A model generated the notes under the pieces. It did not search any database, was not told the DNA's origin, and was given only the letters and a program-made list of their open reading frames with translations. From NCBI GenBank assembly GCA_041641305.1, contig JBEPYN010000001.1:352001-416000 (forward strand): 64,000 bases of DNA, given 5' to 3'. This document shows positions 36,860-41,807 of the stretch, in pieces (the stretch's first letter is position 1; every line of letters starts with the position of its first letter). This DNA comes from Nitrososphaerota archaeon (GTDB lineage: Archaea > Thermoproteota > Nitrososphaeria_A > Caldarchaeales > Caldarchaeaceae). The translations under genes and the position numbers were made by a program.

Positions 36860-36897
36860 GGATGCGTCGCCAACTGGACGGCAGACGCCTTAGGCCA
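36860..36897 (+). other. 5' arm of the 23S pre-rRNA processing stem (BHB)
   Basis: GGATGCGT-CGCC-AAC-TGGACGGC...CCTTAGGCCA pairs with 41773-41807. Confidence 0.9.
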
Positions 36898-38125
36898 AAA
36901 TACGCCAGCCGGTGGATAACTCGGCTTGGGGGCCGAAGAAGGGCGCGGCAAGCTGCGAAAAGCCCCGGGTAGCCGCAAGCAGGCGTTGATCCGGGGATGC
37001 CCGAATGGGATTTCCCGGCATCCCGCGCTTCGGCGTGGGATGTCGCTCCACTGCCTCGAGCTGTGGAGCGGGAACCGGCCGAACGGAAGCATCCAAGTAG
37101 GCCGAGGAAAGGAAATCAAAACGAGACTCCCCTAGTAACGGCGAGTGAACGGGGACCAGGCCAAACCGAACCCGCATGGGAAACCATGTGGGGATGTGGG
37201 GTGTGGACCAGCCGCCCTCCTGTGCCCAGCGACCCGAAGCGACTTGGAAAGGTCCGCCATAGAGGGTGACAGCCCCGTAGGGGAAGCTGGGAGTGGAGAT
37301 GGGCTGGTTCCCGAGTACCGCACCTCGGATATGGTGCGGGAAGACAGGAGCCACTGGCTTCTAAGCCTAAGTACCTCCCAAGACCGATAGCGCAACAGTA
37401 CCGTGAGGGAAAGTTGAAAACTACCCCGAGAGGGGGGTGAAAAGCGGTTGAAACCGGCTGGTAATAGACGAGGGCGGCGCGCAAGGTACTCCGTCCGAAC
37501 ACGCCGCGTAGGTGTGGAGGGCGGATTATCCGGCGTCGTCCGCTCCGTCTTGAAACACGGGCCGGGGAGTTCACCGTCGTGGCGAGCTTAACCGCGGAAA
37601 GCGGGTAGGCATGGGGAAACCGAGAAGCCCGCAACCGACTCTTGTCGGCGAGGGGCCGGGTCCGAACAGGGCCTGTAGTCACGGCGGTGAGGCTAGAAAC
37701 CGGGCGATCTAGCCCTGGGTAGGGTGAAGCCGGGCGAAAGCTCGGTCGAGGCCCGAACGCGTCCTGACGTGCAATTCGGTGCGTTGACCTGGGGCTAGGG
37801 GCTAAAAACCAATCTAGCCCGGTGATAGCTAGTTCCCCCCGAAGTGTCTCGCAGGACAGCCTCGGCGGAGGTGGTCCGCGGGGTAGAGCACCGATGGGGT
37901 GGTAAGGGCTCGAAAGGGCCCGCCATCCTTTCGAACTCCGAATCCGCGGACGCCGTAGATGCCGGGAGTGGGGTGTGCGGGGTAAGCTCGCACGCCGAGA
38001 GGGGAACAACCCAGACCGCGGGTTAAGGCCCCAAAGTGCCCGCTAAGTGACAAACCAAAGGGCGTCTCCCTCCTAAGACAGCGGGGAGGTAGGAATAGAA
38101 GCTGCCATCCTCCAAGGAGTGCGTA

Positions 38126-38817
38126 AGTTGCGGAATCTCCGGCGAAAACTAAATTACCCGACTGCTTCTGCATCACGGTGGTGTTGGTTAACGAGGCCTA
38201 TATCGCAGGTGCTCTACGCGATGGCTACGTCGGAAGATACATCGACGTATATGGGAAGGTCCACAGCGTCGTAACACTTTACAACAATGACATCGATTGG
38301 CTAAAACGTGTGGCGGACTTGTTAAATTCCACATATGGAGTCAATGCGAGAATTTTTGTTAACCCCAATCGAACACCGTATCTTCGTGTATATTCAAAAA
38401 GACTTGTACAATATTTTGCTGAAAAATTCTGCCATCCCATAGGAAAGCAGACAAAATGGTGCACGCCTTTATTCATCAAGAACAGCGATGACCCCGAGCT
38501 TTGGAGGACCTACATCGCAGGATACTTTGATGCAGAAGGCGGAATTGATACGATTAAAAAACAGATCAAGTTTCACACATCTTTTGAGGGCTCAACATGC
38601 CCACCCCTTGTAGATATTAAACTAGCGCTCGCACGGTTCTTCGAAATCAGAACCGGAAACGTATGCATGTACCAAAACAATAGGGGAAAAATTCCCAGAT
38701 TTGTTCTACGCATACTCAAGTCGGATAATAGAAAGTTTTTCGGAACATTTCCACTACTTAACACTACAAAAATCCAAAGACTGTTGAAAATTATGCCGGA
38801 GCGTTCGCAACCGCAAG
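38126..38817 (+). mobile_element. Archaeal BHB-type rRNA intron (692 nt) after A1095 (E. coli numbering)
   Basis: Removal restores GTGCGTA^ACAGCTCAC. Central helix TGCG/CGCA, bulges TA^A and AG^A, intron stem GTTGCGGA/TTCGCAAC plus CTCCGGC/GCCGGAG. Confidence 0.92.
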
Positions 38818-38855
38818 ACAGCTCACCCGCCGAGGAGGGGGGCCCCGAAAATTGA
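38178..38855 (+). CDS. LAGLIDADG homing endonuclease (two motifs) of the BHB intron; stop lies in exon 2
   Basis: YIAGALRDG and YIAGYFDAEG; AT-richer than the flanking rRNA. Confidence 0.9.
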   Translation: MVLVNEAYIAGALRDGYVGRYIDVYGKVHSVVTLYNNDIDWLKRVADLLNSTYGVNARIFVNPNRTPYLRVYSKRLVQYFAEKFCHPIGKQTKWCTPLFIKNSDDPELWRTYIAGYFDAEGGIDTIKKQIKFHTSFEGSTCPPLVDIKLALARFFEIRTGNVCMYQNNRGKIPRFVLRILKSDNRKFFGTFPLLNTTKIQRLLKIMPERSQPQDSSPAEEGGPEN

Positions 38856-39339
38856 CGGGTCTAAGCGGGCCGCCGAAACCCGGGTTCACCCAGTTGTTGC
38901 TGGGTGGAGGTAGGGGGGCGTGGCGGTTGGGTGGAAGCAGGGCCGTGAGGTCCTGTGGACCGGCCGCCAATGTAGATCCCGGTGGTAGTAACAGCGGAGC
39001 GGGGTGAGAATCCCCGCCGCCGAAGGGGCAAGGGTCTCCCGGCAACGCGTCGTCGGCCGGGAGTAAGCCGGTCCTAAGCCCGACCTTAACCGGGTAGGGC
39101 GAAAGGGAAACCGGTTAATATTCCGGTGCCTCCGGAGTACGTGCGGCGACGCAAGGCCGGTGTCCGACGCTTCGGGGTAGGCTGAGCGGGGCCGTAGCCC
39201 CGTCTAAACGCATAAGCCTGGGGAGTGGCGTAAAGCCGAGAACCAGGTGAAAACGTGAACGGCCGCCCGTATGGGCGGTTCAGCTGATCCCTGGAGCCCA
39301 TGAAAAGGACACCGGCAAGGATCTCCGGAGACCGTGCCA

Positions 39340-39386
<47 letters not shown>

Positions 39387-39408
39387 TCACTCCAGGGCGA
39401 GGGAACTC

Positions 39409-39441
<33 letters not shown>

Positions 39442-39635
39442 TGCCTGAGGCCTTGGCCGCGAGGCTGGGGCCTTAGGTCGCAGTGACTAGGGGGTCCTGA
39501 CAGTTTAATAAAAACCTAGGTAGCCGCGAGACCGAAAGGTTTTGAACGGCTATTGAATCCTGGCCAGTGCGGGTACTCGAAAACCGGGTTCAACCGGCAT
39601 AAGGGCCCGTAAACGCCGGGAGTAACTCTGACTCT

Positions 39636-40772
39636 CGAGCTAAAAGGGAGTCGTTAAACCCGGCTATATGCGGGGAATTCCAGAACCCTTAACTACCTTA
39701 AAAGGTAACAATGTTGAGGGTTATGAGGAAGACCCGCAGGAAACCCCTGCCAACGTGGTCGCCATGCTCACCGAATTCTCCGACATAATTGATCCAAAAG
39801 ATCTTCCGAACAAGCTAAGCCAACTCAAGTGGCATATAACGGGGTTCGTCGACGGCGACGGGAGCTTTCCAATCATTCTCTCTCCAGAGGAGACAAAGAA
39901 ATTCGGCTGGTTGATACAGCCACGCTTCGAGTTGGAGCTGAGAAGCGGCGAAGACTCCGAGACGATGCTCAGAGTGGTTTGCAGAGCAGTGGGGATTAAG
40001 CCGAAAATATTGACGAGCGAAAACTACGTCAAACTAATCGTCACAAACAGGAGACTCCTCCTGGAAAAAGTGGTGCCATTCTTCGAGAAATACAGGCCCG
40101 TAATCAAATGGCGCGACTTCAAGACGATGAGCGAGGTTGCGAAAGACCTACACCAGAAAAAGCATCTAACATATGAGGGCTTCAAGGAGATCATCCGAAA
40201 AATTTACTCGCTACCAATGAATGGCGAGTCGCGGAGAAAGTGGAGGTTCAGCGACATCATACAGGATGAGGAGCCTCCTCAACACGTGGAGAAAAAAGAA
40301 GAACATAGATTTCCCAGGGGACTTGTTCCACTGAAACACTACGTCGCCGGCTTCATAGACGCCGAAGGCTCGTTGGGATTCGTCATAAACAAGGAGACCA
40401 AGTCGATAACACCGTATCTAACAATAACCAGCTCCGAGACAGTTGTGCTACAGAAAATAAGATGGCTTCTGGGATGCGGAGAAATCAGCACAGGAAGGCT
40501 CCAAATCTACGGCGTCGACAACTTCGTCAACAGTGTTGCACCGTTTCTCGACAGACAAAAGCTCATAGCGAAAAGGACAACATACAAGATGTTTAAGCAG
40601 ATTCTTGAGACGGTGGTCAGAGGCGACCACAAAAGAAACTGGGAAGAAACCGTAGCGTTCGTCAAAATGTTGAATAAAAAGGCAGGGGGATCCTCAGAGA
40701 CCATACGCCGGGCGTCCTCATCGAAGACTGGGGGCGAAGATATGGTCCAGCACCCGTAAACCCTGGGTGTTG
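39636..40772 (+). mobile_element. Group I intron (1137 nt) at LSU position 1923
   Basis: Removal restores GACTCT^CTTAAGGTAGCC. 5' exon ends in U, intron ends in G. IGS GGGAGTC, P3 CCCGGC/GCCGGG, P4 TGCGGG/CCCGCA, R TCAGAGACCAT, S AAGATATGGTC. Confidence 0.93.
39764..40759 (+). CDS. LAGLIDADG homing endonuclease (two motifs) in the P6 loop of the group I intron
   Basis: HITGFVDGDGSF and YVAGFIDAEGSL. Frame is open from ATG 39668; ATG 39764 is the first ATG inside the loop. Confidence 0.92.
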   Translation: MLTEFSDIIDPKDLPNKLSQLKWHITGFVDGDGSFPIILSPEETKKFGWLIQPRFELELRSGEDSETMLRVVCRAVGIKPKILTSENYVKLIVTNRRLLLEKVVPFFEKYRPVIKWRDFKTMSEVAKDLHQKKHLTYEGFKEIIRKIYSLPMNGESRRKWRFSDIIQDEEPPQHVEKKEEHRFPRGLVPLKHYVAGFIDAEGSLGFVINKETKSITPYLTITSSETVVLQKIRWLLGCGEISTGRLQIYGVDNFVNSVAPFLDRQKLIAKRTTYKMFKQILETVVRGDHKRNWEETVAFVKMLNKKAGGSSETIRRASSSKTGGEDMVQHP

Positions 40773-41412
40773 CTTAAGGTAGCCAAATGCCTTGTCGGGT
40801 AAGTTCCGACGTGCATGAATGGATCAACGAGGGCCCCGCTGTCCCCGCCTGGAGCCCCGTGAACCCACGTAACGTGGGCGAACAGTCCACGAACTCCCAA
40901 CGGGGAAAGAAGACCCTGTGGAGCTTTACTGCAGCCTGTCGCTGGGATGTGGACGAGTGTGCAGAGCGTAGCCGGGAGCCGTCGATCCCCGTCTCTCCGG
41001 GGGCGGGGGGAGGCGCCCATGTAACACCGGCCACGCTTGTCTGCATCTCTCACCGGCGCGGAAGCGCTGGAACAACGGCAGGTGGGCAGTTTGGCTGGGG
41101 CGGCACCCCCTTGAAAAGATATCGAGGGGGCCCAAAGGTCGGCTTAGGCGGGACAGAAACCCGCCGTGAAGTGCAAGGGCAAAAGCCGGCTTGACAGGGC
41201 CCTTGAAAGCCAGGGGCCCTGAGGGGAAACCCAGGCCTAGCGATCCATCGGCTCCTACCAGTGGGGGCCGGTGGTGACAGAAAAGTTACCCCAGGGATAA
41301 CAGGCTCGTCGCGGGCGAGAGTCCCCATCGACCCCGCGGCTTGGTACCTCGATGTCGGCTCTTCCCAACCTGGCCGTGCAGAAGCGGCCAAGGGTGCGGC
41401 TGTTCGCCGATC

Positions 41413-41452
<40 letters not shown>

Positions 41453-41772
41453 ATCGGATTTTACCTGTTGGGAGTGCTGGCTGCCTGAGGGGAAGGTGTT
41501 CCCAGTACGAGAGGAACGGAGCGCCGGGGCCAACGGTGTACCGGTTGTCCTACAGGGCAGTGCCGGGCAGCTGCGCCCCCGCGGATAAGGGCTGAAAGCA
41601 TCTAAGCCCGAAGCCGCTCCCGAAAACAGGCAGCCACTCGCCGGGTAAGGGCTCGGCAACGGGCCTATACCGGCGACGAGGGCTCCCGTAGAAGACGGGT
41701 TTGATGGGGCGGGGGTGTACGGATGGAGGCTTCGGCCGGACATCCTCAGCCCGCCGCTCCCAACCGCCCGAG

Positions 41773-41807
41773 TGGCCTAAGGAAGCCGTCCAGGCGAAAA
41801 CGCATCC
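41773..41807 (+). other. 3' arm of the 23S pre-rRNA processing stem (BHB)
   Basis: TGGCCTAAGG-AA-GCCGTCCA-GGCG-AAA-ACGCATCC. Confidence 0.9.

Follow-up and report, generated by a model that had tools for sequence, protein, structure and literature searches.

Which kind of intron interrupts the 23S rRNA gene of this archaeon, and how it might leave the transcript, is the question raised by a 64,000-nt stretch of Nitrososphaerota DNA (GenBank assembly GCA_041641305.1, contig JBEPYN010000001.1, positions 352,001 to 416,000; hereafter the window, in whose numbering positions are given). We conclude with high confidence that the insert at 39636-40772 is a mobile group I intron, probably of subtype IB4, lying after U1923 (E. 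coli numbering) in the only 23S gene of a hot-spring archaeon, the host being congeneric with the organism of accession BA000048.1, which we take to be Candidatus Caldiarchaeum subterraneum. The insert shows the features by which group I introns are recognised: a U.G pair in P1, a terminal G, a P3-P9 core and a P7 formed between the R and S elements. An earlier note on this DNA had proposed an IB-like group I ribozyme at site L1923, and that proposal is supported by covariation, by folding, by a negative scan for the bulge-helix-bulge (BHB) motif of archaeal introns and by identification with the published intron IB4.9.

The host gene was delimited by an rRNA model search, which revealed a complete archaeal 23S rRNA gene at 36887-41783 (2,551 bits). 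The gene measures 4,897 nt against 2,987 model positions, so about 1.9 kb of extra sequence is inserted in it; set against its relatives and the rRNA model, the gene shows two inserts, 38126-38817 (692 nt) and 39636-40772 (1,137 nt). The second interrupts the gene between U1923 and C1924, where the rRNA alignment breaks at GACUCU / CUUAAGG; the exons read ...GUAACUCUGACUCU before the insert and CUUAAGGUAGCC... after it. Its boundaries were set by the rRNA alignment together with the uninterrupted alleles of relatives, which carry an unbroken AGTAACTCTGACTCTCTTAAGGTAGCC (the empty site is AGTAACTCTGACTCTCTTAAGGTAGCCAAA in G019 and G034), and have a one-base ambiguity, since a C flanks both ends. 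The L1923 placement made in the earlier note is borne out by this alignment and by the match to the published site LSU/1923 (LSU, large-subunit rRNA). The window's genome (1.66 Mb, 99.3% complete) holds a single copy of the 23S rRNA gene; the insert must therefore be removed to make a ribosome.

We assessed the fold by swapping, in silico, the loop that bears the open reading frame (ORF) for a tetraloop and folding the ORF-deleted core without constraints. The minimum free energy (MFE) structure recovers P1 (6/6 pairs), P4 (5/6), P5 (4/4), P5a (10/10), P5b (4/4), P6 (8/8), P7 (5/6), P8 (8/8) and P9 (7/7); P3, which forms a pseudoknot with P7, is for that reason missing from it. The energy of the ORF-deleted core is -105.6 kcal/mol, compared with -68.2 +/- 5.0 kcal/mol for shuffles (z = -7.5), and 42 of the 65 core pairs are G-C.

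Forty related genomes, searched at the DNA level, yielded ten homologous introns at the same site. The resulting eleven introns were aligned with 12-nt exon flanks and 45 shared core pairs were tested, P7 being entered as a pseudoknot; in slid controls, the pairing partners were moved by 1-3 columns. Cells were paired in 96.3% of cases, against 36-50% in the slid controls, 13 pairs had changed on both sides, against 1-3, and the covariation score was 0.264, against at most 0.079 in controls. Compensated positions were seen in P1, P3, P5, P6, P8 and P9. P1 is paired in all cells (100%) and its U39635.G39647 wobble at the 5' splice site is kept in 11/11 copies, while exon position 39633 and guide position 39649 vary in concert (U-A in four sequences, C-G in seven). 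The P3 pair 39660/40711 occurs in C-G, U-A and G-C states. Both sides have changed at all four pairs of P5, at two pairs of P6 (whose outer five pairs are 100% paired), at two of P8 (98% paired) and at three of P9. P4 is invariant except for one G-C to G.U change in one sequence, and neither P4 nor P7 has a pair changed on both sides in any of the 11 sequences, as expected of the catalytic centre. A further copy of 1,129 nt (L168), found via its endonuclease in a Bathyarchaeota-annotated lineage, carries fully compensated variants of P3, P5a, P8 and P9; its P3 is CCCAGC/GCUGGG, in which a further pair has gone from G-C to A-U. We also observed that the S element of L168 (2385-2497) reads GAUAUGGCCC, so that P7, elsewhere invariant, has an A.C mismatch at the pair corresponding to A40700-U40746.

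The helices P1, P3, P4, P6, P7, P8 and P9 and the terminal G40772 of the earlier note are all present at their positions (Table 1). Only six nucleotides (GUUAAA), all unpaired, separate P1 from P3; there is therefore no P2, as the note had said. Other parts of its description need amending. What it called an extended P5 does contain a 10-bp helix, which is P5a capped by P5b, the proper P5 being UUCC/GGAA. Its P7, GACCA/UGGUC, is correctly paired and too short: the helix has 6 bp, G40697-C40748 followed, across the bulged A40698, by G40699-C40747 through A40703-U40743. C40748 therefore belongs to P7, not to P9, and G40772 is better left unpaired. By analogy with the P7 of Tetrahymena, we take G40699-C40747 to be the guanosine-binding pair. 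Lastly, P6 was said to enclose the ORF; the frame starts in the P6 loop but is not enclosed by that helix, running on to end in the P9 loop. Read by eye, guide positions 39644-46 (AAG) could form a 3-bp P10 with the CUU of the 3' exon.

Table 1. Elements of the intron at L1923 and of its exon borders, in window coordinates
Feature	Position	Strand	Remark
5' exon end, P1 exon strand GACUCU	39630..39635	+	ends at E. coli U1923; pairs with 39647-39652
Group I intron, probably IB4-type, LSU/1923	39636..40772	+	1,137 nt; rRNA alignment and empty alleles; ortholog of published IB4.9
Internal guide sequence	39644..39652	+	39647-52 (GGAGUC) forms P1 with the 5' exon
P3 5' strand CCCGGC	39659..39664	+	partner 40707-40712; 100% paired in 11 homologs
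P4-P5 domain	39669..39738	+	P4 39669-74/39733-38; P5 39678-81/39727-30
P5a and P5b	within 39669..39738	+	P5a 39684-93/39713-22; P5b 39694-97/39704-07; 5-nt ACAAU bulge
P6 5' strand CCCCUGCC	39744..39751	+	partner 40681-40688
Putative homing endonuclease gene	39764..40759	+	331 aa; two LAGLIDADG_1 domains; Pfam PF00961 in two stretches, E 4e-22
P6 3' strand GGCAGGGG	40681..40688	+	
P7 5' strand GAGACCA	40697..40703	+	bulged A40698; part of R element UCAGAGACCAUAC; invariant in 11 homologs
P3 3' strand GCCGGG	40707..40712	+	with P7 forms the core pseudoknot
P8 hairpin CGUCCUCA / UGGGGGCG	40713..40736	+	strands 40713-20/40729-36
J8/7 AAGAUA and P7 3' strand UGGUCC (S element)	40737..40748	+	invariant in 11 homologs
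P9 hairpin AGCACCC / GGGUGUU	40749..40771	+	endonuclease stop UAA in loop
Terminal guanosine (omega-G)	40772..40772	+	G before CUUAAGG in 11/11 homologs and L168
3' exon start CUUAAGG	40773..40779	+	E. coli 1924-1930; rRNA alignment and empty alleles

The intron is not new: it is the ortholog, in another species, of the published IB4.9 (BA000048.1 1314432-1313300, Aigarchaeota, LSU/1923, 1,133 nt, IB4 model E 2e-7; PMC6125680, Table 1), whose supplement entry gives P7 as GAGACCA/UGGUCC and the ORF as LAGLIDADG_1 (PMC6125680). Among the genomes that we compared, the intron of G009 (G009:C1:1313300-1314432, minus strand) has exactly the coordinates of IB4.9. The G009 and window introns are 82% identical over their whole length and their flanking exons 98%, the two hosts belonging to the same genus. 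Insertion site, length class (1,133 versus 1,137 nt), P7 and a double-motif LAGLIDADG_1 enzyme in the same loop are shared, and the host 23S gene of IB4.9 also carries the upstream intron that is of BHB type in the window. The window intron differs in coming from a separate species-level genome and in 18% nucleotide divergence, which includes compensated changes in P5a, P8 and the P9 loop; there is no difference in kind. The IB4 subtype is taken over from the published IB4-model match on this 82%-identical ortholog and is thus probable for the window intron. The novelty implied by the earlier note falls away, and the discovery value is small, since archaeal LSU/1923 group I introns, including an ortholog in a sister species, were published in 2018.

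Several other known introns occupy the same stretch of rDNA. The remaining archaeal LSU/1923 IB4 introns (IB4.7,.11,.13,.17,.18,.20,.21 and.28; PMC6125680) and the 755-842-nt copies of G004 and of family f2 share site and core blocks with the window intron, namely GUUAAAC-P3-GCUGUAUGCGGGGAA, GACCCGCAGGAAACC, UCAGAGACCAUACGCC and GAUAUGGUCC. They differ in their P5 extensions and in having no ORF, a single-motif LAGLIDADG_1 or a LAGLIDADG_3 instead of the two-domain enzyme. As the earlier note rightly stated, site 1923 is also that of the Chlamydomonas eugametos chloroplast LSU intron encoding I-CeuI (PMC3315327). That intron shares the rRNA insertion site and a LAGLIDADG_1-family endonuclease; when the endonucleases, rather than the ribozymes, are compared, the match to I-CeuI, a homodimer of single-motif chains, is distant (E 3e-6), whereas the window enzyme, a two-domain monomer, is nearer to the I-OnuI family (E 4e-25). 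The Vulcanisaeta intron Vdi141.L1927, whose enzyme I-Vdi141I targets CTGACTCTCTTAAGGTAGCCAA (PMC2602781), involves the same 24-bp rDNA stretch and is likewise a mobile, endonuclease-bearing rRNA intron of thermophilic archaea. It is inserted 4 nt downstream, and it is spliced by a protein endonuclease at a BHB motif, which the window intron lacks.

Several points weigh against the group I reading. A search with the covariance model RF00028 gave no match on the window, the 23S region or the whole genome; with the 3' core searched alone, RF00028 came top of 4,227 families but weakly, its 11.7 bits (E 0.48) lying far below the model's threshold of 50 bits. The RNA runs over the stretch gave no listed exon-exon joint from 39635 to 40773. 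P4 and P7 have no two-sided change and are therefore uninformative either way. The eleven homologs are kin from one order, so that the shuffle statistics (0/500 shuffles matched the observed value for four of five measures) overstate independence. Finally, the last ~78 nt of the endonuclease frame (about 26 codons; 40681-40759) overlap P6', J6/7, P7, P3', P8 and P7' up to the P9 loop, an overlap that could constrain either function.

As regards RF00028, its sub-threshold alignment is structurally correct. R, P7 and P3' fall on UCAGAGACCAUACGCCGGGC, P8 falls on P8, and S with P7' falls on GAAGAUAUGGUCC; the R element with the P7 5' strand was aligned to the consensus UUCAaAGACUAAA, and J8/7 with the P7 3' strand (the S element) to AAGAUAUAGUC. 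In control searches the model also misses the L1923 introns of an archaeal locus (L092) and of a bacterial one (L041). RF00028 was likewise without a significant archaeal match in the study of Nawrocki, Jones and Eddy (2018), in which the GISSD IB4 and IA3 models found 39 introns (PMC6125680). We attribute the failure to the model rather than to the intron, and a negative RF00028 result is unusable for dismissing such introns. The earlier note had named the want of a covariance-model match among its grounds for giving up the group I reading; the model, when run, stayed below threshold, and this yardstick proved invalid, as RF00028 also misses other L1923 introns. Among the loci examined, the L1923 introns of unrelated hosts nearly all bear an ORF (583-819 nt). 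The bacterial locus L041, a Saccharibacteria 23S gene, holds at least two group I introns close together (900-1134 and 1155-1959), of which RF00028 detects the upstream one (66 bits) and not the 805-nt L1923 one. For the covariation, it is fairer to compare with the slid controls, whose outcome is decisive.

The RNA data are uninformative: neither X22 nor X7 supports or contradicts splicing. In the raw RNA reads of X22, both exons are covered and the intron is not, and the exon reads carry variants of related strains. The microbial-mat metatranscriptome X7 contains a 977-nt contig of the intron interior (window 39682-40647, two mismatches, depth 20.5), directly preceded by adapter sequence. 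Excised intron RNA, precursor RNA and DNA carry-over are all conceivable origins of this contig. The public runs holding the stretch are mostly hot-spring metagenomes, and a hot-spring origin is indicated. From these runs and the 42/65 G-C core pairs, thermostability of the intron is plausible.

Archaeal rRNA introns are classically of the BHB type, many of them with a LAGLIDADG gene, and the same 23S gene has one at 38126-38817. The L1923 insert might accordingly be another BHB intron, dependent on the tRNA splicing endonuclease and a ligase for its removal and merely carrying its LAGLIDADG gene. Around the two junctions we looked for a 4-bp helix flanked by two 3-nt bulges, taking the cut to fall behind the second bulged base. 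No candidate excised 39636-40772 or 39637-40773; a single one had the right length, and it was devoid of flanking helices and gave the wrong rRNA junction. The intron at 38126-38817 served as positive control. It revealed a canonical BHB (UGCG/CGCA, bulges UAA and AGA, 8-bp inner helix), and the predicted excision agrees with the boundaries obtained by comparison with relatives. The absence of a BHB at the L1923 ends, already asserted in the earlier note, is thus confirmed by a scan with an internal control. Moreover, the group I fold is backed by covariation, and the endonuclease belongs to LAGLIDADG_1, unlike the LAGLIDADG_3 enzyme of the adjoining BHB intron. We therefore give the BHB explanation almost no credence: one 23S gene carries a BHB intron and a group I intron.

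Equally hard to credit is a decayed insertion that is no longer spliced, whether an intervening sequence excised without ligation or part of a pseudogenised rRNA gene. The lack of a recovered spliced junction read would fit such decay. This is nonetheless the only 23S gene of a 99.3% complete genome, the rest of it scores 2,551 bits over the full model, the U.G pair, terminal G and P1 covariation are kept in 11/11 copies, and the endonuclease frame is intact in three species. An intron that has the group I fold and is not autonomous, needing a helper at high temperature (its own LAGLIDADG protein as maturase, or a host factor), is a stronger contender, which we still regard as unlikely. Some organellar group I introns do have LAGLIDADG maturases, the endonuclease frame here runs through P6' to P9 and so couples RNA and protein, and our literature search turned up splicing data for no archaeal group I intron. 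Against such dependence stand a catalytic core with all its parts in place and strongly conserved (P3/P7 pseudoknot, bulged-A P7, J8/7, terminal G) and G+C-rich helices; the presence of the same core with three endonuclease types argues against reliance on one specific protein.

For the mobile group I intron that we favour, self-splicing by the established group I chemistry is suggested by the anatomy. The pre-rRNA would fold into P1-P9, and a guanosine from outside, presumably docked in P7 at G40699-C40747, would attack the phosphate after U39635, held in P1 by its U.G pair with G39647. The terminal G40772 would next occupy the guanosine site, and the freed 3'-OH of U39635 would attack the G40772-C40773 junction, aligned by the short 3-bp P10. 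GACUCU would thereby be joined to CUUAAGG and the intron released. At the DNA level, the LAGLIDADG_1 endonuclease may cut intron-less 23S rDNA around 1923, and repair would copy the intron in (homing).

The putative endonuclease, of 331 aa, is of the monomeric, two-domain LAGLIDADG_1 (PF00961) type: its translation contains the motifs GFVDGDGSF and GFIDAEGSL in one chain, each with the acidic residue that closes a LAGLIDADG motif. The nearest solved structures are monomeric enzymes of the I-OnuI family (E 4e-25), the matches in the Protein Data Bank (PDB) spanning both halves. I-OnuI-family enzymes are products of fungal mitochondrial group I introns. Public data contain about 64 homologs, which share 47-80% identity with the window protein and lie for the most part on metagenomic contigs of 1-3 kb. 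Its N-terminal half shares 35% identity with the single-domain enzyme in the 755-nt intron of G004. The frame runs from an ATG at 39764, in the P6 loop, through P6', P7, P3', P8 and P7' to the UAA at 40757-59 in the P9 loop. A longer open frame from 39668 (363 aa) was rejected as the gene start: it runs through P4-P6, and the ATG at 39764 aligns with the starts of homologs. The ORFs of the shorter relatives likewise end 35-50 nt before the 3' end of their introns; the overlap of coding and catalytic sequence is therefore a habit of the family.

Among the relatives with a readable site, L1923 is filled in four genomes of family f1 and in seven of f2, and empty in three 23S copies from two f2 genomes, in three f3 genomes and in five f4 genomes; genera g5 and g8 each contain both kinds of allele. 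We count this patchy occupancy for mobility. The related genomes combine one ribozyme core with three types of endonuclease in the P6 loop: two-domain LAGLIDADG_1 (window), single-motif LAGLIDADG_1 (G004 and G020; loci L004 and L005) and LAGLIDADG_3 (G023, G029, G031, G033, G035 and G039, including loci L006 and L013). Three cassettes on one core indicate that cassettes are exchanged independently of the ribozyme. A core pattern, TCAGAGACYA...GATATRGTCC, is present in at least 120 bacterial and archaeal genomes; among the matches listed, 16 of 131 adjoin the 1923 exon motif, and some of these really lie at ~1917. Since so few do, the pattern marks group I cores generally and names no donor or direction of transfer. 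A cross-domain history of the intron, as put forward in the earlier note, is plausible in general.

A joint reading can be offered tentatively, as possible and rather unlikely: that the Caldarchaeales L1923 lineage combines a naturally heat-adapted ribozyme, independent of protein at hot-spring temperatures, with a core that exchanges endonuclease cassettes. None of the archaeal group I introns in the literature appears to have been assayed, and the window intron would suit a first biochemical study of a group I ribozyme that is archaeal and presumably thermostable. Its value otherwise lies in being a second, diverged copy (82% identity) of a hot-spring group I intron, one whose two-domain LAGLIDADG enzyme is intact, and in providing, with nine shorter relatives and the Bathyarchaeota-annotated copy, a ready covariation set. 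It is also another clear case of group I and BHB introns together in one rRNA gene. The LAGLIDADG_3 type of the f2 L1923 introns is the type otherwise seen in BHB introns; cassette exchange at an rDNA hotspot with BHB-like introns 4 nt away in sister lineages would, if true, point to gene traffic, or even conversion, between intron classes.

Those neighbouring inserts were seen four bases downstream of the group I site, at ~1440-1500 of loci L147 (G012), L149 (G030), L150 (G028) and L151 (G036). They measure ~56, 150, 555 and 560 nt, have terminal inverted repeats and are laid out as exon ...UCUCUUA, insert ACGGG...GGGAGA and downstream exon AAGGUAGCC. Their site resembles L1927, where the BHB intron of Vulcanisaeta has been described. 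The 555-nt insert of G012 contains no ORF of at least 80 aa. The LAGLIDADG_3 enzyme of f2 was considered as an I-Vdi141I type and rejected, no link being shown; its sole PDB match is 2dch (E 0.0045). As to the BHB intron of the window (38126-38817), it is common to G009 and absent from most relatives, and its LAGLIDADG_3 ORF (38178-38855, 225 aa) reaches a stop codon only in the downstream exon. Relatives carry extra 23S inserts near window ~39511, of ~218 nt (G013; L002 ~1156-1375) or ~600 nt (G004; L004 ~771-1370), and one of ~600 nt near ~39010 (G031; L009 ~259-867); both sites are empty in the window's genome. In this order, 23S genes are rich in introns, and the set of occupied sites varies from one gene to another.

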